Positions 8,029 to 19,781 of a stretch of 64,000 nucleotides of DNA are shown piece after piece (position 1 is the stretch's first letter; every line of letters starts with the position of its first letter). The translations under genes were made by a program, and so were the position numbers. The stretch comes from an uncultured Candidatus Saccharibacteria bacterium (lineage in GTDB: Bacteria; Patescibacteriota; Minisyncoccia; Phycocordibacterales; UBA918): NCBI GenBank assembly GCA_964601615.1, contig CAZRNZ010000001.1:185968-249967 (forward strand), written 5' to 3'. Under the pieces are notes generated by a model that saw only the letters and a program-made list of their open reading frames with translations, was not told where the DNA came from and did not search any database.

Positions 8029-10851
8029 TCATTGTGAAATAATAAAATTGAGAATTTTTCCTGGTACGTAAACCACTTTTTTAATTTCTACTCCCTCTAA
8101 ATACTTAGCAACACCCACTTGTTCTTTTGCCAATAAAATTGCTTCATCTTCTGTTGTATTAGAGACCAAAGTTATATCTCCCCTCACCTTCCCATTCACT
8201 TGAACACCGATTTTTATAACCTCATTCTCTAACAAACCTTCGTCAGCTGTTGGAAAATCTGTTGCATGAATAGTAAATTCATTTCCAAGACTACTCCAAA
8301 GCTCTTCTGTTAGGTGAGGGGCAAAAGGTGCGAGGATTTTTAAGAATTTTTCGTAGGAGTCTTTGGATAGACCTGTTTTCTCAACAGCATTTACATAAAT
8401 CATCATTGCACTAACAGCTGTATTGAACTTAAATCCTTCAATATCTTCTGTTACTTTTTGAATAGTCTTATGTAATAGTCTAGTAGATTCTTCTGGCTCA
8501 CTTTCTACAATATGCTCACTAAGGCCATTTACTCTTTCTATGAACCTTTGAGCACCTACCAAACCATTTGTGCTCCAGGCTACTGTATTTTCAAATGGTC
8601 CCATGAACATTTCGTAAATTCTCATGGAATCAGCGCCATTTTGCTTCACAATATCATCAGGATTAATTACATTCCCCCATCTTTTAGACATCTTTCTTCC
8701 ATCTTCTGCCAAAATGAAGCCCAAGAACTCAAGTCTAGTAAAAGGCTCAATATAATTTACAGCACCTATATCATAAAGGAATTTATGCCAAAATCGTGCG
8801 TAAATTAAGTGCCTAACAGCATGGTCTCCTCCCACATAAACATCAACTGGCGACCATTTTTTATCTTTGTCTTTATTAATCAGAACGTCATTGTTTTTTG
8901 GATCAACAAAGCGAAGATAATACCAAGAAGAACCTGCCCATTGCGGCATGGTATTTGTCTCACGCTTGGCTGGTTTAGCACATTTTGAACAATCGACATT
9001 TACCCAATCATCAATAGCCGCCAATGGTGATTCTCCTGTACCTGTCGGTTCGTAATTTTCTACTTCGGGCAAAGTAACCGGAAGTTGTTCAAAAGGAACT
9101 GGTACAACACCACAATCTGCACAATGAATCACTGGAATTGGTTCACCCCAATATCTTTGTCTAGAAAACACCCAATCACGAATTTTATAAGTATTAGTAA
9201 GTCTTCCACCTACTTTTTCAGTAATAGTTTTTTTAGCTTCTTCACTATTTAATCCATCAAATTCCCCAGAGTTTACCAAACTTCCGACACCAGTCCATGA
9301 ACAGCCATTTAGAAAATCACTCCATATATCAAAATGTGCTTCCCAAGTAATTTTTTTACCAACTTCTTCTTTATCAACCCATTCAACAGTATGTCTACCC
9401 TCATCTATTTCTGAAGAAACTTGAGTCAAACTCTTAAGCTTAATATGATAACCAAAACTTTTAGTCTTTTGGTTCTTATCTTTTGTATGACGATAAACCA
9501 GTGCCGTATGAATACTCACTGGACCACTCACAATTTCATAATCAGTAAAACCAGTCTCCTCAATCAACTCTCTCCCAATCGCAACTTCGTGTTTTTCACA
9601 ATCTGTGCCACCACCTACAAAATGTATATGATCGGGACTGCTTCCATCAGTCTCTCTTTGTAGTAAAAAGGTGCCGTCTGTTGGATGCTCAATAATCAAA
9701 TCTATCACATCACCACGATCCAATGTCTCTACACCTTCTTTAGTTTTTAAATCAAAGTGTCGAGCAATGACTTGCGTGATAGGTAAGTTAAATTTTTTAG
9801 CAAAAGCAGCATCACGTTCATCATGTGCTGGTACTGCCATAATTGCACCAGTACCGTAGTTTGCCAGTACATAATCAGCAATAAATACTGGAATTTCCTC
9901 ACCATTTGCTGGATTTACAGCAGTAACACCCTCAAGCTTTACACCCGTCTTTTCTTTATCGTTGTTTGTACGATCTATTTCACTCTTTAGTTTTGATTCT
10001 TTTATATACATCAAAACCTCATCTTTATTTTGAATCGGTAACTTATTCACCAGTTCATTCTCTGGTGCTAAAACTAAGTAAGTTACGCCAAACAAAGTAT
10101 CTGGACGAGTGGTAAAGACTGTCACTTTTTCACCATTAGATAAAGTAAAATCGACTTCCGCTCCTTCACTTTTACCAATCCAATTTCTTTGTGCTTCTTT
10201 AATATGTTCTGGCCAATCAAGTGTGTCCAAATCAGCTAACATACGGTCAGCATAATCAGTAATTTTTAAAACCCACTGACGCATTGGTTTTTTTTCTACA
10301 ATACTGCCACAACGCTCACAAGTACCATCACTTTCAAGATCTTCATTAGCTAATCCTGTCTGACATCCTGGACACCAATTAATTGGCTCGTAAGACTGAA
10401 AAGCTAAACCCTTTTCAAGCATTTTCAAGAAAGCCCATTGAGTCCATTTATAGAATTCAGGATCAGTTGTGTTTATTTCTTTGCTCCAGTCATAGTTAAA
10501 GCCAAGATGAGCTAATTGTTGTTTAAAGTTAGCAATATTTTTTTCCACTGCAGCGCGGGGGTGTACCTTGTTTTTAATCGCAAAGTTTTCTGCTGGTAGA
10601 CCAAAAGCATCCCAACCCATTGGATGAAGTACTTCAAAGCCAGACATTTTTTTGAAGCGAGAATAGATATCAGTAGCAATATAGCCTTTTGGATGCCCTA
10701 CATGAAGGCCTTCTCCAGAAGGATAAGGAAACATATCGAGTACATAAACTTTTTCTTTATCAGAATCTGTATTTGTCTGATAAATATTGGCCTCTTCCCA
10801 TTTTTTCTGCCATTTTTTCTCTATGGCGCTGTGATCAAACTTTTTATGCAT
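8029..10851 (-). CDS. leuS: leucyl-tRNA synthetase with embedded Nudix hydrolase domain
   Basis: Class I aaRS motifs (HVGH, editing TTRPDT, ...KMSKRWGNVI KMSKS-like). Start taken at MHKKFDHSAIEKKWQ (10851); the upstream Met at 10902 adds a non-conserved Cys-rich leader. An extra ~157-aa segment (~aa 381-540) contains a full Nudix box GGGTDCEKHEVAIGRELIEETGF. Confidence 0.9.
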   Translation of the reverse strand: MHKKFDHSAIEKKWQKKWEEANIYQTNTDSDKEKVYVLDMFPYPSGEGLHVGHPKGYIATDIYSRFKKMSGFEVLHPMGWDAFGLPAENFAIKNKVHPRAAVEKNIANFKQQLAHLGFNYDWSKEINTTDPEFYKWTQWAFLKMLEKGLAFQSYEPINWCPGCQTGLANEDLESDGTCERCGSIVEKKPMRQWVLKITDYADRMLADLDTLDWPEHIKEAQRNWIGKSEGAEVDFTLSNGEKVTVFTTRPDTLFGVTYLVLAPENELVNKLPIQNKDEVLMYIKESKLKSEIDRTNNDKEKTGVKLEGVTAVNPANGEEIPVFIADYVLANYGTGAIMAVPAHDERDAAFAKKFNLPITQVIARHFDLKTKEGVETLDRGDVIDLIIEHPTDGTFLLQRETDGSSPDHIHFVGGGTDCEKHEVAIGRELIEETGFTDYEIVSGPVSIHTALVYRHTKDKNQKTKSFGYHIKLKSLTQVSSEIDEGRHTVEWVDKEEVGKKITWEAHFDIWSDFLNGCSWTGVGSLVNSGEFDGLNSEEAKKTITEKVGGRLTNTYKIRDWVFSRQRYWGEPIPVIHCADCGVVPVPFEQLPVTLPEVENYEPTGTGESPLAAIDDWVNVDCSKCAKPAKRETNTMPQWAGSSWYYLRFVDPKNNDVLINKDKDKKWSPVDVYVGGDHAVRHLIYARFWHKFLYDIGAVNYIEPFTRLEFLGFILAEDGRKMSKRWGNVINPDDIVKQNGADSMRIYEMFMGPFENTVAWSTNGLVGAQRFIERVNGLSEHIVESEPEESTRLLHKTIQKVTEDIEGFKFNTAVSAMMIYVNAVEKTGLSKDSYEKFLKILAPFAPHLTEELWSSLGNEFTIHATDFPTADEGLLENEVIKIGVQVNGKVRGDITLVSNTTEDEAILLAKEQVGVAKYLEGVEIKKVVYVPGKILNFIISQ

Positions 10852-10932
10852 AACTTGAAATAAACAAAATGACTCCCGCTTTATACAGGAGTCATTATGC
10901 AATCTAAAACAAGATTGTTCAACCTTTCAGGA

Positions 10933-12090: not shown

Positions 12091-13191
12091 CTAGCTATGC
12101 ATGAATTCCATCACATCACCATCCTCAACGATATACTCCTTTCCCTCAGTACGCAACTTACCAGCTTCACGCGCTTTTGCTAATGAACCCGCTTCTACTA
12201 AATCGCTAAAAGAAACAACCTGAGCGCGAATATACTTACTCTGGAAATCAGTATGGATTGCCGCACCAGCTTCTGGACCTGTTGATCCACGCTCAATTGT
12301 CCAAGCACGAGTTTCTTTTTCACCAGTTGTAAAGTATGACATTAAACCAAGTAGACGGTAACACGCTCTAATTAAGCTTTCTACCCCACTATCTTGTGAA
12401 CCATATTCGCGGCGAAATTCTATTTTTTCGTCTTCTTCTAAATCTTTTAGTTCATGTTCCATTCCGGCATCAACAACCACATATTCTGAGCCAGATTCTT
12501 CAAAAAATTCCACCAAACGCTGCCATCTTTCGTCATTTTGTTCATCCAAGTTATATGAGCCTTGCTTACGATTACAAACATACAGAAATGGCTTCATAGT
12601 AAGAAGATGTAAGCCTTTAATCAGCTTCTTTTGCTCATCAGTGAAAGCAAAAGAGTTAGCTAACTTACCATCTTGCAAGTGAGTAATAAGTTCTGAAAGA
12701 ACTTCTTGCTCTGCTACAGCAGACTTATCGCCACGTTTAGCATCTCTTTCTACGCTATTTAAACGCTTTGAAACTGTCTCAGCATCAGACATCATTAACT
12801 CAAGATTAATGACCTCAATATCACTCATTGGATCAACTAAGCCAGACACATGGTGCACATCACTATCTTCAAAAATACGTACAACCTCAGCAATCATTGA
12901 AACCTCACGGATATTTGAAAGAAATTTGTTACCCAGACCTTCTCCTGAAGCCGCACCCTTAACTAATCCAGCAATATCCACAAACTCCACAATTGCAGGA
13001 ATAACTTTGGCAGTATTAGAAATCTTTGCCAATGTTTCCAATCTTGGATCAGGCACAGCAACTACACCAACAGAGGGGTCAATTGTACAAAATGGGTAAT
13101 TTTCTGCCGGCACACTACTGCGAGTAAGCGCATTAAAAAGTGTCGATTTTCCGACATTTGGTAGTCCTACGATTCCTACTGATAATTGCAT
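12091..13191 (-). CDS. ychF: ribosome-binding ATPase YchF (Obg-like GTPase family)
   Basis: G1 VGIVGLPNVGKSTLFNALT, TGS-like C-terminal ...IVEDGDVMEF. 366 aa. Confidence 0.9.
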   Translation of the reverse strand: MQLSVGIVGLPNVGKSTLFNALTRSSVPAENYPFCTIDPSVGVVAVPDPRLETLAKISNTAKVIPAIVEFVDIAGLVKGAASGEGLGNKFLSNIREVSMIAEVVRIFEDSDVHHVSGLVDPMSDIEVINLELMMSDAETVSKRLNSVERDAKRGDKSAVAEQEVLSELITHLQDGKLANSFAFTDEQKKLIKGLHLLTMKPFLYVCNRKQGSYNLDEQNDERWQRLVEFFEESGSEYVVVDAGMEHELKDLEEDEKIEFRREYGSQDSGVESLIRACYRLLGLMSYFTTGEKETRAWTIERGSTGPEAGAAIHTDFQSKYIRAQVVSFSDLVEAGSLAKAREAGKLRTEGKEYIVEDGDVMEFMHS

Positions 13192-13230
13192 AATGGAGTT
13201 AGATTAACAAAATAAAACAAAAAGACAAAA

Positions 13231-13256
13231 GTAAAGGTCGCGCTTCGCGCGACCTA
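13231..13256 (-). terminator. GC hairpin GGTCGCGC-ttcg-GCGCGACC with T-rich tail on minus strand
   Basis: Lies just after the stop of the 13262..13600 gene. Confidence 0.6.
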
Positions 13257-13261
13257 AAAAA

Positions 13262-13600
13262 TTATTGAACGATTTCCCAAACAGGAACTTCAGCATTGCG
13301 CCACCCGAGAGAACTTTCCATAGTTATTGGAACAGCTTCGTAGAGATGACAACCAGAGCCGATACTGGGAGTCGGTTTCACCAGAAAAATTGGCTTGTCG
13401 GGTTCCTCGTATTTGGCAAGAAATACTCCATCAAGCACAACGCCGTCGCGGCCGCGTAAATCCTTGTATTTGGCCTCAAGAGCAACGACACCCTTTGAGC
13501 CACAGCTCTCCATCAGGTTTGCCACCTGCATGGAATGAATGAAACGACGCATTCCTTCCTGGTTTGCCACTTCTGCTGGAATAAGAACATTAAAAGCCAC
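13262..13600 (-). CDS. hypothetical 112-aa protein, compositionally atypical (GC ~50%)
   Basis: GTG start at 13600 is preceded by a strong SD (GGAGG, 5-nt spacer) and followed by an uninterrupted 112 codons with protein-like composition. No family recognised. Confidence 0.55.
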   Translation of the reverse strand: MAFNVLIPAEVANQEGMRRFIHSMQVANLMESCGSKGVVALEAKYKDLRGRDGVVLDGVFLAKYEEPDKPIFLVKPTPSIGSGCHLYEAVPITMESSLGWRNAEVPVWEIVQ

Positions 13601-13675
13601 CTCTGCCTCCTATAGGGCTCTGAAAAACAAGCCGTAATATACCACAGAATTTTAAAAAGGAAAGTTATTAGAGGA

Positions 13676-13725
13676 AAATAAAAAGACCACCCTGTTTGCC
13701 TCCTTGGTCAAACCGTGGGTGGTCG
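13676..13725 (-). terminator. intrinsic terminator GACCACCC...GGGTGGTC followed by TTTTTATTTT (minus strand)
   Basis: 8-bp GC stem, 22-nt loop, U-tract. Lies in the 270-nt spacer between the NAD(P)H dehydrogenase gene and the GC-rich ORF. Confidence 0.6.
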
Positions 13726-13860
13726 TGTGTTCAGCTTAGTTGCTGACACTTGTCGCAACAGTGGGTTGTCGCTCGGGTTTTATCCCATTGCTCCGGCCTG
13801 ATCAGGAAGCGACGAAAGAAACGAACTTACTCATCGTAAGCATTCTCCTCACAAGTTGAA
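13726..13860 (-). ncRNA. possible structured leader or small RNA (GC-rich, hairpin-rich), unclassified
   Basis: ~50% GC versus the ~39% background. Nested complementary segments (GUCGCU...AGCGAC; palindrome CCUGAUCAGG; GGG-uuuuau-CCC). A TATAAT -10 with TTGCAT -35 lies at ~13866-13900 on the minus strand. The segment ends in the terminator above. Confidence 0.3.
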
Positions 13861-13870
13861 CACTCTTTTA

Positions 13871-14449
13871 TTATATACCTTTTTTCGCCATAGATGCAAT
13901 GTCACCCAGCCAATTATCACGACAAACATTATCCACCTTGTCACAAGGACCGAAGGCGGTAACCTTGGTCTTAAGTCCGGCAAATTCTAAGATCCCGTAC
14001 TGAATTTCATTTGTATAATCACCAAATTGCCACCAAGTCTGGAATGGACTATGCGTACCAGCAACGATAATAACTCGTGCAGTTTTTCCTGTAAGTCGTT
14101 TTACTAATTTTTTAGTTTCTTTATCAAAATTAAAAGCAAAACCTGGTAACCAAACTCGGTCAAACAAACCCTTAAGTAAAGCTGGCATAGTACACCACCA
14201 GTTTGGATAAATAATTACCACATGATCAACTGCACGAATTGTTTCTTGTAATGAAATTAAGTCTGGTTCTAAAACCTGAATTTCCTTGTATCCTTTATGG
14301 AGAATTGGATCAAAGTTTAATTCACCTAGATTTACTCGATAAACATCGTGCCCAGCTTCACGCGCTGAAGATTCGTAGCGATCAGCTATTTGTCCTGAAT
14401 AAGTCTCTTTGTCTGGATGACCAAGTAATACCAGTATCTTTTTTTGCAT
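13871..14449 (-). CDS. flavodoxin-like fold NAD(P)H dehydrogenase (quinone) family protein
   Basis: MQKKILVLLGHPDKETYSG...VIIYPNWWCTMPALLKGLFDRV matches the Flavodoxin_2/NQO-like signature. Confidence 0.8.
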   Translation of the reverse strand: MQKKILVLLGHPDKETYSGQIADRYESSAREAGHDVYRVNLGELNFDPILHKGYKEIQVLEPDLISLQETIRAVDHVVIIYPNWWCTMPALLKGLFDRVWLPGFAFNFDKETKKLVKRLTGKTARVIIVAGTHSPFQTWWQFGDYTNEIQYGILEFAGLKTKVTAFGPCDKVDNVCRDNWLGDIASMAKKGI

Positions 14450-14460
14450 ATTACTTTATA

Positions 14461-14495
14461 TGATAACAAAGACGCGGCGCCTTCGGCGCCGCGTC
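14461..14495 (-). terminator. GACGCGGCGCC-ttcg-GCGCCGCGTC hairpin with T-tail on minus
   Basis: Perfect 11-bp GC stem directly after the stop of 14508..14822. Confidence 0.65.
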
Positions 14496-14887: not shown

Positions 14888-15340
14888 TTGTTAAATAAAT
14901 TGCTAAGCTATTTAGCTAAATTTCTTATGAATCGGGAAAAATATATATCAAACTTCTTAAAATCTCTCAAAGAATGTGATCGAGGGACTTGGGGAAAAAT
15001 ATCAAAGATACCAATAGCTAAGCTTACAGCTTCTCAATGGGGTGTTCTCTCGCTCATAGAAAGCGGTGGAAAATCAGTCAAACAGATTGCTGAAATAATG
15101 CTCATTACAGGAAGCGCTGTAACTCAAATAGCTAACGATTTAGCAAGCAAGGATTTACTTAAAAAAGTTGTTGATAAAAATGATAAAAGAGTAATAAATC
15201 TCACTCCTACATCTAAAGCCAAAAAACTCTTACAAGAAATGGATGAATGGCAAGCAACAGAGTTAAAAACGATGTTTTCAAAATTAACCGATAAAGAACT
15301 AAAAACACTAGTTGAACTACACGAAAAAATAATCAAATAA
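14888..15340 (+). CDS. MarR-family transcriptional regulator
   Basis: Winged HTH LTASQWGVLSLIESGGKSVKQIAEIMLITGSAVTQIANDLASKDLLKK...DKRVINLTPT. Start uncertain: 14888 or the Met at 14927. Confidence 0.75.
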   Translation: MLNKLLSYLAKFLMNREKYISNFLKSLKECDRGTWGKISKIPIAKLTASQWGVLSLIESGGKSVKQIAEIMLITGSAVTQIANDLASKDLLKKVVDKNDKRVINLTPTSKAKKLLQEMDEWQATELKTMFSKLTDKELKTLVELHEKIIK

Positions 15341-15347
15341 CAATTAT

Positions 15348-16682
15348 ATGAAAATCAAAAATATTTTAAAAAACACAAAAAACAATATTCAAAAGCATCC
15401 GATTATTTCTGGAGTAATCTTTTTGATTATTATAGCGGGGACCATAACATCTTTCTTCACAAGCAAAGAAGTTAAGGATGAAGAAGCTAATGATAATCCT
15501 AGAACAGTAGAGATTATTGAGGTGAGTGATTTTCGCAGCGGAGCACTTGGAATTTCTTCTCCGATAGCTGGTGGTGACTCTTTTGTAATTCGAGCTGAAA
15601 GTAGCGGCAAAATCACAAAGGTGGCAAATTTGACTGAAGTTTCTCAAGGAACAATTATTGCAGAAATAGAAAACTCAGCACAAAGAGCAGCCCTTTTGCA
15701 GGCACAAGGTGCTTACGAAGGAACATTGGCTATGGCTGAACAAAGTAATATTGGAGCTGTTGATGCAAACACAGCACTAACAGCAGCCAAAAACGAAGCA
15801 GTTAACACAAACAAATCTGCTTTAACAGCTTGGACATCAACCATGTACAACGTAGTTGATCAAGTTTTTAATAAGCCATTAGAAAAATTTCCAGGAGTAG
15901 AAATTGATGCATTTGGAGAAGCACCACAAATCAGTCGCGAACGCGGCTCGTTAAACGAGACTTTAAAAAACTGGAATCAAGATGCACAAAGACTTAATGC
16001 AGGAATGACCACAGCTGAAATAATTATTGGAATCGATTCTGCTATCACAAACACAAATAGACTTTCTACATTAGTAAATCAATTTGTTCTTCTTCTACCA
16101 AGACAGAAGGTAGACAACCCTTTACCACAAGAATACATAACCGCTTTACAAAATAGTTTTGCTAGCGCACAGGCAACTCTAGATGCTCAGAAATCAGCTC
16201 TTGAAAGAGCTAAAACTGGACTACAAAGAGCTGAAGAGGGACTTAAAAGTGCAGAGATAAGTGGCACAAGTGGAACTATTTCTTCTGCCAATGCACAAAC
16301 AAAACAAGCTCTTGGTTCTTATCAGGCAGCTCGCTCAGCTTACGAGAAGACAATTGTTCGCGCGCCTTTTGCTGGAAAAATTTCTTCGGTAAACGTAAAT
16401 ATGGGCGACATAGTAAATTATGGTTCTGATGTAGCCATTATTACCCCAAATGAAGGAGAGAGTACTGAAGTTTCATTTTTGTTGCCACTTTCAGCGGTTA
16501 AATACACACCAGATGGCGCTACTGTATTTGTCATAAACCAAGAAGGTAATCTGGAAACAATACAGGTTGAAACTGGTCTTGTAACTGCTTCTTCTATCAA
16601 AATTACTGGACTTACTGGTGAAGAAAAAATTGTAAAAGACATTAGAGGTCTACGTGCTGGTGATAAGGTAGAAGTTAATTAA
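15348..16682 (+). CDS. efflux RND periplasmic adaptor (membrane fusion protein, HlyD-like)
   Basis: N-terminal TM, biotin-lipoyl-like segment, long coiled-coil Ala/Gln-rich hairpin, C-terminal beta-barrel. Sits 7 nt upstream of the RND permease. Confidence 0.75.
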   Translation: MKIKNILKNTKNNIQKHPIISGVIFLIIIAGTITSFFTSKEVKDEEANDNPRTVEIIEVSDFRSGALGISSPIAGGDSFVIRAESSGKITKVANLTEVSQGTIIAEIENSAQRAALLQAQGAYEGTLAMAEQSNIGAVDANTALTAAKNEAVNTNKSALTAWTSTMYNVVDQVFNKPLEKFPGVEIDAFGEAPQISRERGSLNETLKNWNQDAQRLNAGMTTAEIIIGIDSAITNTNRLSTLVNQFVLLLPRQKVDNPLPQEYITALQNSFASAQATLDAQKSALERAKTGLQRAEEGLKSAEISGTSGTISSANAQTKQALGSYQAARSAYEKTIVRAPFAGKISSVNVNMGDIVNYGSDVAIITPNEGESTEVSFLLPLSAVKYTPDGATVFVINQEGNLETIQVETGLVTASSIKITGLTGEEKIVKDIRGLRAGDKVEVN

Positions 16683-16691
16683 AATAATTAT

Positions 16692-19600
16692 ATGTTCCCT
16701 ATTTGGAATTTTTTACTTGAACGAAAGGCGTTCACCATACTAGTAATGTTTGCTTTGATACTTTCTGGTATCGTAGCAATCAATACTATTCCTAAAGAAG
16801 CAATGCCTGAGGTTGTGCTACCGATGGGTGTTGTTAGTGCATCACTTCCTGGTGCAACAGCTTCTGACATGGAGAGATTAGTGACCGACAAGCTTGAGCC
16901 TGCAATTACAAATCTACCGAATATCGACAAGGTTACTTCTAGCTCTCGCCAAGGAGTAACAATGATAACCGCACAATTTATTGCTAGTGCTGATATTGAG
17001 ACATCTATTCAAGACCTTCGTAATGCAGTAGAGCAAGCTAAGGGCAACTTACCCTCTGATGTAAATGGTCCTGTAGTATCTAAGGTTGATTTTCAAAATC
17101 AACCAGTCATGATGATTGGTGTCTCTAGTGAACTTACACCAGAAGCTTTATACGATTTAGGTAATAAGTTAGAGGAAAATCTTTTAACTATTTCTGGAGT
17201 ATCTAAAGTTGATATTTCTGGTATTAGAGCACGAGAAGTCTCTATAATTGTAAACAGTAACTCTTTAACAACTTATGGAATTGCTCCTGGACAAGTAATT
17301 GGAGCCTTGCAAAGCGCCAATGCTTCCATCCCAGCCGGTTCAATAACTATAGATAATATTGACTATCCAGTACAATTCAACGGAAATATTGAACAAGTTA
17401 GCGACCTAGCAAATATCCCTATTGCAACTCAAACTGGAGAAATCCGCTTATCTGATGTAGCAAATATTGTAGACGGTTTCCAAAAAGCTAGCAGTATTTC
17501 TAGACTTTCAGAATCTGGCAGCGAAATATCTTACGCAATGACTTTAAATGTTTATAAGTCTAGTGGTGGAAATATTCTTACTGTTACTGACAAGGTTGAA
17601 GAAAAACTAAAAGATCTTGAGTCATCAGTTTTACTTGGCTCTAACTATGTAGTTATCTACGATGCAGGAGATGAAATTAAAAAAAGTATCGGTGAATTAA
17701 CTGGAGCAGGTCGTGACACAATCATACTGGTTGTACTAGTACTTCTTATTGCTGTAGGTTTTCGTGAAGCAATAGTTTCTGCATTATCTATTCCATTTTC
17801 ATTTATGATTGCCTTTTTGGGTATGTGGATGAGTGGAAATACCATTAACTTCATTTCCCTATTTTCTCTAGTTATTGCTATTGGTATTTTAGTGGACTCA
17901 GGGATTGTAATTGTTGAAGGGATTTACAGCAATCGAAAGAAAGGAATGGACAAAATCTCAGCAGCTAGAGAAACGATCCGCCAGTATTCATGGCCTTTAA
18001 TTGCTGGGACAGTTACTACAGTGGCAATATTTGTACCCCTACTATTCCTTTCTGGAATTATGGGTAAGTTCCTATTTTCTATTCCATTTACTATTATTAT
18101 TGTTCTTCTTTCCTCTATTGTTGTTGCTCTGGGAATCGTCCCACTTTTGGCAACAAAAATTTTGAGTGACAAAGAAAGTAAGTACAACAAATATCGTGAC
18201 GCATTCTGGAACTCATTGAATGATTGGTATCAAGAAAAACTCACTATTTTGCTGAACAATAGAAAGGCACAGAAGATATTTTATGGAATATTAACAGTAT
18301 TATTTATTGTATCTATCGCCCTACCTGTATCTGGTCTTTTGAAAGCAACAATGTTTCCACCAGAAGACATGGACTTGTTCTATGTGGAAGTAGAGCTACC
18401 GCAAGCATCTACCTTAGCTTCGACTGATACTGTTACTCGTGAAGTTGAAAAGAAAGTCGCTGAAATGAATGAAGTCTCTTCTTTTATGACCACAATTGGT
18501 TCTGGAAGTGCTTTTAATTACGAAGCTGGTTCTGGTAGTAAAATAGCCAATATTACAGTTAACCTGGAAAAGGATAGAGATCATACTTCAATTGAAATAA
18601 CTTCAAAACTACGAAGTGAACTTTCGTCACTACAGGGAATGAATGGTGCTAAAATCACTGTCACAGAAGTATCTAGCGGTCCTCCAGCCGGAGCACCTGT
18701 GGTAATTAAGATCTGGAGTGACAGTACCGAAAATCTGGCCAAAGCAACAGCACAAGTTGAAAGTATCATAATGGAAACTGAAGGTACTCGTGACACATCC
18801 TCATCACTTTCTAATGATGGAACAGAACTACTAATTAATATTAATCGTGAACGTGCAGCAGAATACGGCCTTTCTGCTTCTGACGTGGCGATGGCGCTTC
18901 GTACAGCTATCAGTGGTGTTGAGGCAACGAAGCTTCGAGTTGACGGTGAGGACTTACCTGTTGTATTTAAGATTGCTCTTAATCAAAATTACGAAGTTCC
19001 GGAAGAAATCACTATTGTTAATGCAGACGCTATTGCTAGTACTCCAATTCTGACACAGCGTGGAAACATTCCACTTGGTTCACTGATTTCTATTTCTGCT
19101 AACAGAACTAGCACATCAATCAATCATGAAAATGGTAAAAGAATTGGTACTGTCGGTGCATTTTTGGAAGTCGGTGCTAATCCAATTGAAGTTACAAACA
19201 ATATAAGAACAGCGATTGATTCTGCAGAAACACCAGCTGGAGTAACATTTACCTACGGTGGTGATGATGAAGAGATCACTCGAACATTTACAGAAATGAT
19301 GTTTGCCATGATTGCCGGACTTGTACTTATGTTTGCTGTATTGGTAATTGAATTCAATGCATTCCGTACAACCCTTAGACTTCTTATTGCGATTCCATTA
19401 TCACTAACAGGAGTTCTGATTGGATTGTTTGTTATGGGACAAGCCCTTTCATTAACAGCCTTCTTGGGAATAATTGCGCTTAGTGGCGTGATTATTAACC
19501 ACGGAATTCTCTTGCTCGATATCTTAAACAAGATAAAGGAAGATGGTGAAATAACTGATCCTAAAGAACAAATTCTAAAAGCAACGACTAGTCGTATGCG

Positions 19601-19781
19601 ACCAATCCTTCTTACGACAATCACAACTGTTGTGGGAATGATTCCATTGATGTTCGTTTCTGAAATGTGGGCTCCTCTTGCTTACACAATGGCATTTGGA
19701 CTACTTTATGGAACTGTTTTGACATTAATACTTATTCCTCTTCTTTCGTACAACTATCTACTTAAGCAAAGTAAGAAATAA
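16692..19781 (+). CDS. RND efflux transporter permease (AcrB/HAE1-like)
   Basis: 1029 aa with 12-TM architecture and two large periplasmic loops; sequence is consistent with the HAE-RND family. Confidence 0.85.
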   Translation: MFPIWNFLLERKAFTILVMFALILSGIVAINTIPKEAMPEVVLPMGVVSASLPGATASDMERLVTDKLEPAITNLPNIDKVTSSSRQGVTMITAQFIASADIETSIQDLRNAVEQAKGNLPSDVNGPVVSKVDFQNQPVMMIGVSSELTPEALYDLGNKLEENLLTISGVSKVDISGIRAREVSIIVNSNSLTTYGIAPGQVIGALQSANASIPAGSITIDNIDYPVQFNGNIEQVSDLANIPIATQTGEIRLSDVANIVDGFQKASSISRLSESGSEISYAMTLNVYKSSGGNILTVTDKVEEKLKDLESSVLLGSNYVVIYDAGDEIKKSIGELTGAGRDTIILVVLVLLIAVGFREAIVSALSIPFSFMIAFLGMWMSGNTINFISLFSLVIAIGILVDSGIVIVEGIYSNRKKGMDKISAARETIRQYSWPLIAGTVTTVAIFVPLLFLSGIMGKFLFSIPFTIIIVLLSSIVVALGIVPLLATKILSDKESKYNKYRDAFWNSLNDWYQEKLTILLNNRKAQKIFYGILTVLFIVSIALPVSGLLKATMFPPEDMDLFYVEVELPQASTLASTDTVTREVEKKVAEMNEVSSFMTTIGSGSAFNYEAGSGSKIANITVNLEKDRDHTSIEITSKLRSELSSLQGMNGAKITVTEVSSGPPAGAPVVIKIWSDSTENLAKATAQVESIIMETEGTRDTSSSLSNDGTELLININRERAAEYGLSASDVAMALRTAISGVEATKLRVDGEDLPVVFKIALNQNYEVPEEITIVNADAIASTPILTQRGNIPLGSLISISANRTSTSINHENGKRIGTVGAFLEVGANPIEVTNNIRTAIDSAETPAGVTFTYGGDDEEITRTFTEMMFAMIAGLVLMFAVLVIEFNAFRTTLRLLIAIPLSLTGVLIGLFVMGQALSLTAFLGIIALSGVIINHGILLLDILNKIKEDGEITDPKEQILKATTSRMRPILLTTITTVVGMIPLMFVSEMWAPLAYTMAFGLLYGTVLTLILIPLLSYNYLLKQSKK

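Follow-up and report, generated by a model that had tools for sequence, protein, structure and literature searches.

The type I small RNAs derived from 3' untranslated regions (3'UTRs) in enterobacteria, for example MicL in cutC and DapZ in dapB, have a promoter that lies within the 3' end of the preceding coding sequence or overlaps it, share the intrinsic terminator of the upstream mRNA and form products of ~100-300 nucleotides (nt) that are separate from the next gene. Dual-function small RNAs such as SgrS/SgrT and RNAIII/hld also end in a terminator, and their structured RNA encodes a peptide in a short open reading frame (ORF). From the Candidate Phyla Radiation (CPR, or Patescibacteria), we know of almost no small RNAs or regulatory leaders that have been described experimentally, and a literature search for them in this group returned none. 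A third arrangement is that of the leader-peptide attenuators, in which a short ORF preceded by a Shine-Dalgarno (SD) sequence lies upstream of an intrinsic terminator, as in bmrB-bmrCD of Bacillus subtilis (PMC4191407) and, with released RNAs, in trpL (rnTrpL-peTrpL) of Sinorhizobium (PMC7298713). Here, we analyse a GC-rich island on the minus strand of a 64,000-nt stretch of CPR DNA (contig CAZRNZ010000001.1; the whole stretch is called the window below), situated in the slot between a flavodoxin gene and ychF. The explanation that we favour, with moderate confidence, is that the slot holds two independent accessory modules: a structured RNA of ~185 nt, which is a 3'UTR, probably forms a transcript of its own and contains a mini-ORF, and a separately promoted gene for an orphan protein, ORF112.

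The locus resembles each of the described systems in part. Like the type I RNAs, it has a promoter-like element overlapping the 3' end of the upstream coding sequence, and its RNA shares the intrinsic terminator of the upstream mRNA; the length and the separation from the next gene, here known from sequence alone, are also alike. Unlike MicL and DapZ, to which it has no sequence relation, it contains a conserved mini-ORF and comes from a CPR host without known RNA chaperone context. As in the trpL and bmrB leaders, a short ORF preceded by an SD sequence lies upstream of an intrinsic terminator, and the terminated product could serve as a small RNA and encode a peptide; unlike those leaders, the element has no detectable terminator/antiterminator switch and no regulatory codon runs, the genes downstream have promoters of their own, and the downstream gene is not the same in all relatives. 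The combination of a structured, terminator-ended small RNA with a translatable short ORF recalls SgrS/SgrT and RNAIII/hld; the peptide, however, is only 10-13 amino acids (aa) long and variable but for its last three residues, and no base-pairing targets were found among complements of the RNA's invariant motif in the 64 kb.

Two modules in a variable slot

The island interrupts the gene order MarR / 104-aa gene - Flavodoxin_2 - gap - ychF - DUF5671 - leucyl-tRNA synthetase (LeuRS) - sigma-70, which is common to the relatives that we compared (related loci, including those fetched through YchF relatives, are given L-numbers). Judged by its protein sequences, the window genome is a CPR/Paceibacteria genome of Kaiserbacteria/Nomurabacteria-like affinity: YchF (12091-13191) shares 85-88% identity with proteins that carry the labels Candidatus Kaiserbacteria, Nomurabacteria or Paceibacterota, and DUF5671, typical of the CPR/Paceibacteria group, adjoins ychF. 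The product of the upstream gene is a 192-aa Flavodoxin_2/FMN_red protein. An earlier, sequence-only reading of the stretch had listed a promoter-like site, a hairpin-dense tract, two terminators and a small gene with its own signals, and every one of these is present where it had been placed. In transcription order, the features are as follows:

13899-13894 and 13875-13870, minus strand: promoter-like site, TTGCAT - 18 nt - TATAAT, the -10 overlapping the flavodoxin stop
13873-13871, minus strand: TAA stop codon of the flavodoxin gene
13865-13680, minus strand: structured RNA module, ~185 nt from putative start to the end of the U-run, also the flavodoxin 3'UTR
13863-13853 with 13737-13727, minus strand: closing helix P0, 11 nt, 91% complementary, enclosing the body
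13850-13845, minus strand: SD-like GAGGAG, 6-10 nt before the AUG in the window, L093 and L099
13834-13802, minus strand: mini-ORF, AUG to UGA, MSKFVSFVAS (13 aa if read from the alternative in-frame AUG at 13843)
13813-13800, minus strand: motif GTCGCTTCCTGATC, its last 13 nt invariant in the window, L093 and L099
13759-13739, minus strand: hairpin P3, GUUGC-GACAAGUGUCA-GCAAC, with two covarying pairs
13724-13680, minus strand: terminator 1, outer stem GACCACCC/GGGUGGUC, inner stem GUUUG/CAAAC, apical AAGGAGG, U5
13644-13636, minus strand: extended -10 TGgTATATT, candidate ORF112 promoter, downstream of terminator 1
13611-13606, minus strand: SD sequence AGGAGG, 5 nt before the GTG
13600-13262, minus strand: ORF112, 112 aa, GTG start, TAA stop, orphan protein gene
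13255-13235, minus strand: terminator 2, AGGTCGCGCGAAGCGCGACCT and a T-rich tail, after ORF112
13209-13201, minus strand: ychF extended -10 TGTTAATCT, 9 nt before the ATG (13191), without SD

The distance between the flavodoxin stop and the ychF start differs among relatives, with values of 77-163 nt in the majority, and the island therefore fills a variable slot between conserved genes:

L004, L005 and L086-L088: 77-81 nt
L003: 163 nt
L097: 217 nt
L099: 229 nt
L002: 502 nt
window: about 680 nt

Synonymous sites are saturated even between the closest genomes (proportion of synonymous differences, pS, 0.64-0.77 for ychF, the flavodoxin gene and the 104-aa gene), and nucleotide-level conservation within the slot is therefore meaningful.

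The two modules come apart in the relatives. The window and L093 have both the RNA and ORF112; L099 has the RNA, immediately upstream of the ychF promoter, and lacks the ORF; L090 has the terminator hairpin and the ORF, with the RNA body nearly absent; in L002 and L098, the ORF is present and the RNA body missing; and neither module is present in L004, L005 and L086-L088. In L098, the flavodoxin-stop -10, there TATAGT, abuts the ORF leader directly and replaces the ORF promoter, the RNA body and terminator being deleted (L098 2110-2380). The junction suggests that both -10 boxes may be functional and that recombination between them can delete modules.

Under our favoured explanation, the RNA would begin right after the flavodoxin stop and be at least the 3'UTR of that gene, while the TATAAT over the stop codon would probably also drive a short transcript of ~185 nt. 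Terminator 1, strong and constitutive, would insulate the downstream genes. ORF112, a fast-evolving and lineage-restricted protein of predicted small alpha/beta type, would have its own extended -10, SD sequence and terminator, and ychF would form a separate unit on a third promoter. The last of these points to a probably leaderless ychF transcribed on its own promoter, because the extended -10 sits 9 nt before the ATG and there is no SD sequence; the same arrangement, with 8-9 nt and no SD, is found in L003-L005 and L086-L088.

Wider searches added little to this set of relatives. A YchF scan of genome contigs returned only relatives of <=66% identity, none with the RNA by nhmmer, the universal peptide pattern having swamped the scan; a DNA-pattern search of metagenome contigs with the ychF promoter region gave 4 loci only, all of the short-gap types or L002; and the island had no BLAST match in phage or plasmid collections.

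The RNA module and its mini-ORF

The consensus-like promoter of the sequence-only reading stands as regards its -10, a perfect TATAAT, and falls short as regards its -35, which agrees with TTGACA at only three of six positions. The -10 is written into the last codons of the flavodoxin gene. These read GGT-(A/G)TA-TA(A/G) in all seven loci with the conserved terminator or the ORF directly downstream (window, L093, L090, L003, L097, L099 and L098), giving TATAAT, TATAGT or TATAGA with a TTG 18 nt upstream in every case; in three lineages that lack a module, the gene ends in GGC-GTC-TAA (L004/L088), GGC-GTT-TAG (L005/L086) or GGA-GTT-TAG (L087), and in L002 it ends in GGC-AAG-TAA. That the codons forming the -10 are kept despite saturated synonymous sites argues for selection on the box, among lineages that are few and non-independent. 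We infer that the RNA promoter is used, and any role of the RNA in trans is likewise hypothetical.

At the other end, terminator 1 pairs GACCACCC (13724-13717) with GGGTGGTC (13692-13685), followed by T5 (13684-13680); the 8-bp GC-rich outer and 5-bp inner stems are succeeded by U5-A-U4, as in an intrinsic terminator. A simple scan overlooked it because the loop exceeds 8 nt. The hairpin is orthologous in the window, L093, L099, L090, L097 and L003 (nhmmer and inspection), and over these six loci the outer stem is paired in 48 of 48 cells, no slid register coming close, while three of its pairs have changed on both sides (A-U/G-C, C-G/U-A and C-G/U-A). Terminator 2 is kept after the ORF in L002, L090, L093, L094 and L098. 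Both had been predicted by the sequence-only reading, and terminator-like sites are altogether enriched in the region (6 against 1.7 expected). As a separate observation, GGAG lies in or near the apical loop of all six orthologous hairpins (AAGGAGG, GGAAAGGAG, CAGGAGG or GCGGAG); in the window, this SD-like sequence lies within 13693-13716, and relatives do not retain its potential to pair with the CU-rich invariant motif. A kissing interaction between motif and terminator apex was rejected: its support in the window was marginal (p = 0.046), and neither L093 nor L099 showed it.

The body between promoter and terminator is GC-rich and hairpin-dense, as the sequence-only reading had it: 13865-13725 contains 50.5% GC against 37.7% in the window, and the folding energy has z = -4.1 with the terminator included (201 nt) and z = -2.45 for the body alone. 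The same body type recurs in the same slot in L093 and L099, and all three loci share the SD-like GAGGAG, the motif, a hairpin of the form GYYGC...GCRRC, the linker AAGYUGAA and the terminator. The 14-mer GTCGCTTCCTGATC is common to the window and L093, and 13 of its nucleotides also occur in L099; it comprises the last three mini-ORF codons, the UGA and two further nucleotides, and forms the 5' strand of helix P2. With a body-only nhmmer profile made from L093 and L099, the window motif is the top match in the whole 64 kb (E = 0.077). The two covarying pairs of P3 are U-A in the window and C-G in L093 and L099, and in the three-way RNAalifold alignment, 11 of the 42 predicted pairs show double changes. 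An equivalent of P0 can be read by eye in L099 (GUGUUG/CAACGC); L093 has none.

The body's most distinctive content is the mini-ORF. In three loci, an SD-like box precedes an ORF of 10-12 codons (MSKFVSFVAS in the window, MGAAPFAPSVAS in L093 and MKENVRTSIAS in L099) that closes in frame at the UGA of the invariant UCGCUUCCUGAUC. Only the last three codons and the stop are kept, at the nucleotide level, as (V/I)-A-S-UGA; the remainder of the L093 and L099 mini-ORFs cannot be aligned, and the two differ by one codon in length. When the segment between SD and motif is shuffled, 2.6-4.1% of the trials for each sequence produce an AUG ORF of this kind, and the joint probability of chance occurrence is ~1e-3 to 3e-5, depending on the independence of L093 and L099. 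We know of no described arrest motif of the form (V/I)-A-S-UGA. An extension by read-through of the UGA or selenocysteine was rejected, the extended peptides being dissimilar by eye. The mini-ORF appears translatable, and we infer that it is translated. This conserved mini-ORF is new in this analysis: the sequence-only reading described the RNA without it and without recognising that the RNA is the flavodoxin 3'UTR.

The 3'UTR status follows from the absence of a terminator-like site between the stop (13871) and 13724, and flavodoxin transcripts must include the body. One could then hold that the island is a plain 3'UTR with a terminator, the body being variable and largely neutral or merely stabilising filler. 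The bodies of other loci speak for this: there is almost none in L090 and none in L004 and L005, those of L003 and L097 are GC-rich and wholly unrelated, and the terminator alone is common to all. We nevertheless consider it improbable, if by no means negligible, as lineages with saturated synonymous sites retain the 13-nt motif, the SD-like box and the frame of the mini-ORF, there are compensatory changes in P1 and P3, the stop-codon -10 is maintained through synonymous codon choice, and ~50% GC is at odds with an intergenic tract in a 38% GC genome.

The unrelated bodies deserve a mention of their own. Structured and GC-rich, they precede the orthologous terminator at L003 4838-4925 and L097 734-826; that of L003 is a long hairpin (z = -4.2) closed by a 12-nt inverted repeat, TATAGTGTGGCC/GGCCGCACTATA. 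The slot appears to gather different structured inserts.

Because of the mini-ORF, the main rival to our explanation is a leader-peptide attenuator, in which translation of the mini-ORF, or stalling at its invariant Ala-Ser-UGA, would govern how far transcription passes terminator 1 and enters the next gene, which is ORF112 in the window and L093 and ychF in L099. The layout is suggestive: in three loci, an SD sequence, an AUG and an ORF of 10-12 codons lie 70-78 nt upstream of a strong terminator, and the ORF is conserved at its 3' end only, as in arrest-peptide leaders. That end is also one strand of helix P2, and translation would therefore remodel the RNA. We found, however, no antiterminator for it to bring about in the RNAs of the window, L093 and L099: the terminator stays in all minimum-free-energy folds and in all constrained folds, whether single-strandedness was imposed on the stop codon with its ribosome footprint or on the entire mini-ORF. 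Complementarity of the body to the 5' half of the terminator is at chance level, with duplexes no better than those of shuffled bodies (-15.1 vs -14.4, -13.5 vs -17.1 and -13.1 vs -17.9 kcal/mol). ORF112 and ychF each have a conserved promoter of their own after the terminator, the gene downstream is not constant, and ORF112 occurs without the element in L002, L090 and L098. We regard attenuation as unlikely.

The same evidence bears on a riboswitch. Rfam 15 gave no match at E <= 10 in the window region and none in the RNA slot of eight related loci (E <= 1-5). Unlike riboswitches, the RNA has no aptamer-class match and no mutually exclusive terminator and antiterminator, and it does not consistently co-occur with ORF112; it is probably not a riboswitch for that gene. 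Signal recognition particle (SRP) RNA, 6S RNA, T-box and transfer-messenger RNA were weighed by eye and dropped, as was a likeness of the apical CCGGAAAGGAGCA of L093 and L090 to SRP helix 8, the helix there being continuous and the window lacking the sequence. Of the two possibilities left by the sequence-only reading, that of a riboswitch or attenuator leader is unsupported, given the missing Rfam match, the persistence of the terminator in constrained folds and the chance-level complementarity of the body; that of an independent RNA of ~170 nt, with the ORF on a separate promoter, fits the data, this promoter being kept in L093, L090 and L094 and the modules being separable. Since no antiterminator was found and the modules separate in relatives, we prefer a small RNA that is independent or of the 3'UTR type to a riboswitch or attenuator.

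Several observations weigh against this preference. The -35 of the stop-codon promoter is weak, and because it matches at only three positions, the site was not listed by a consensus promoter scan; the promoter and the ends of the transcript are predictions. The opposite strand folds equally well (z = -4.3), and folding energy is therefore blind to strand, the orientation resting on the U-run, the synteny and the mini-ORF. The body type is seen in three sequences only, two of them close relatives. The covariation, positive as to the paired changes, is not matched by the covariance model built from the L093 and L099 bodies, which gives the window body a score of 1 bit; for this reason, we do not claim homology over the full length of the body but base the relationship on the syntenic 14-mer, P3 and the terminator. 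A mini-ORF upstream of a terminator is, as said, also how a leader-peptide attenuator looks. Finally, complements of the motif are about as frequent in the 64 kb as chance predicts (13 against 11.5 expected), and a target in trans is therefore unsupported.

A more speculative idea, which we consider doubtful, is that the RNA is a CPR-specific ribosome-engaging small RNA that would act through the nucleotide-invariant end of the mini-ORF (GCU-UCC-UGA-UC), either as a stop-codon or arrest-type sensor or as a dual-function RNA/micropeptide, with the orphan protein as its functional partner and the slot as a turnover hot-spot of accessory modules beside the gene of the ribosome-associated ATPase, ychF. 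Very improbable, to our minds, is that the GC-rich body is the remnant of a mobile element beside a terminator, similar to a miniature inverted-repeat transposable element: the body is closed by an 11-nt inverted repeat, the unrelated L003 body by one of 12 nt, and presence is polymorphic, but neither the 64-kb window nor, beyond the syntenic slot, any other fetched locus contains a second copy of any part, the internal SD, ORF and motif are conserved, and the lone match in a viral collection is due to chance. That match, a viral contig with the motif and terminator pattern, was rejected, as it lies on the opposite strand of a large phage-type ORF of 431 aa, terminase-like by eye.

The orphan gene ORF112

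The small gene has the signals that the sequence-only reading gave it, the extended -10 TGgTATATT, GGAGG (13610-13606) and a GTG at 13600 opening an ORF of 112 aa, and these recur in relatives. Equivalents of the -10, of the general form TG-n-TATAnT, read TGGTATAGT in L093 and L094, TGTTATATT in L090 and, less clearly, TGTATAT in L002; the SD sequence is kept in L002, L090, L093, L094 and L098. A HMMER scan of 1.84 billion representative proteins returned the protein itself and three homologues (P0122, P0123 and P0126), a profile search of 5.8 billion clusters one further homologue (P0127), and L098 contains a divergent one of 73 aa (hhalign probability 90.7%). The family has four full-length homologues of 112-116 aa (L002, L090, L093 and L094) and this shortened one, all placed between the Flavodoxin_2 gene and ychF; for L094, this can be read on the ychF side only, since its contig ends ~100 nt before the ORF. 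Matches to P0124, which has repeats like those of transcription activator-like (TAL) effectors, and to P0125, a large repeat protein, were judged repeat-driven artefacts. P0124 (624 aa) is an unusual and unrelated protein with about ten 33-residue TAL-effector-like repeats (…FTAEQIVQIASHDGGSKNIEAVKSSYHELKGLD…).

The ratio of nonsynonymous to synonymous divergence (dN/dS) is 0.07 between L093 and L094 (proportion of nonsynonymous differences, pN, 0.18; pS 0.74) and 0.21 between the window and L002, with dS saturated. Because of these ratios, ORF112 is, by the substitution pattern, truly coding and under purifying selection, and hence a real gene and no artefact of annotation. Its evolution is much faster than that of the adjoining genes, with 66% identity where YchF has 96% and 51% where YchF has 88%. 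In agreement with the sequence-only reading, which could assign the protein to no family, it has no match in Pfam, PADLOC, PHROG, NCBIfam or the PDB sequences. The alignment of five sequences gave a fairly confident AlphaFold2 model, with a predicted local distance difference test score (pLDDT) of 80.9 and a predicted template modelling score (pTM) of 0.74; it consists of three short helices and an antiparallel sheet and has no fold match in the PDB or BFVD. ORF112 is thus like the ORFans of the CPR in its lack of a family or fold match, its narrow clade and its fast evolution; unlike these at large, it is strictly syntenic, under clear purifying selection and confidently modelled (pLDDT 81). 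The protein record (P0001) derives only from an identical 1,163-nt Logan contig of SRR16798010, and the record of YchF from this genome derives from an NCBI contig of 310 kb; ORF112 therefore appears uncalled in the annotation deposited with the genome.

The base composition of ORF112 is anomalous. Its GC content is 48.1%, and at third codon positions (GC3) it reaches 0.434 against 0.264 +/- 0.042 (maximum 0.396) in 46 long ORFs of the window, four standard deviations above the window genes; in all five genomes examined, it exceeds that of the neighbouring genes. The sequence-only reading had suggested horizontal acquisition or strong structural constraint, and neither could be established. 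Structure of the mRNA is ruled out as the source of the GC by comparison with shuffled sequences (z = +0.89). The ORF sits in the same slot in six related lineages and is therefore not a foreign insertion. The last ~43 codons of the flavodoxin gene have a GC3 of 0.44 both in the window (13871-14000, minus strand) and in L002 (4370-4498), against 0.21 and 0.30, respectively, in the rest of the gene (change-point p = 0.07); the GC-rich tract therefore begins inside the upstream gene. With relatives at 43-54% GC, recurrent exchange with higher-GC relatives is conceivable as the source. Import by recombination from one such relative was considered and left undemonstrated, given the change-point p value, the identical 3' rise in L002, the lack of a drop in identity between the window and L002 and the saturated synonymous sites.

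That the RNA and ORF112 form one cassette, for instance a type III toxin-antitoxin-like or defence pair, is scarcely credible: the slot is a presence/absence hot-spot, and its order of promoter, structured RNA, terminator and small protein gene resembles that of ToxIN-type loci, but unlike ToxIN, there are no tandem repeats in the RNA or anywhere in 13150-14000, the protein has no PADLOC, Pfam or fold match, and the two parts do not obligately co-occur (protein without RNA in L002, L090 and L098, RNA without protein in L099), which largely refutes the idea, since an unpartnered toxin should not persist.

Surroundings and significance of the locus

The neighbourhood shows variation of its own. 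A divergent cluster of MarR, membrane-fusion protein and AcrB-type resistance-nodulation-division (RND) efflux genes (window 14888-19781, plus strand) lies between a 166-aa gene and the 104-aa gene, as it does in L003-L005 and L090; it is missing in L002 and L098, where an ATP synthase operon and a 166/170-aa gene directly precede the 104/95-aa gene, and makes a second presence/absence polymorphism near the slot. The conserved hypothetical 104-aa gene is followed at 14471-14495 (minus strand) by a GC-rich and very strong terminator, 10 of whose 11 bp are G-C; it gave a spurious weak Rfam match to a viral frameshift element and has similar hairpins at the same place in L086-L088. On the other side, L098 has a SAICAR synthase gene inserted between ychF and DUF5671 (L098 3774-4700), and the window LeuRS (8029-10902, minus strand) has 957 aa against 782-794 aa in most relatives, and contains, behind its editing domain, an inserted NUDIX domain (residues 408-517); the LeuRS of L094 (941 aa) has the same NUDIX match.

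Overall, what stood out as a compositional anomaly resolves into what we read as an unannotated, structured small RNA with a mini-ORF and a coding family of orphan proteins, both restricted to a single variable slot next to ychF within a narrow clade that resembles the Kaiserbacteria/Nomurabacteria. While the locus overturns no established view, it supplies concrete candidates for metatranscriptomic validation and is a compact example of how, in reduced genomes, accessory modules with their own promoter and terminator may be gained and lost between conserved genes.

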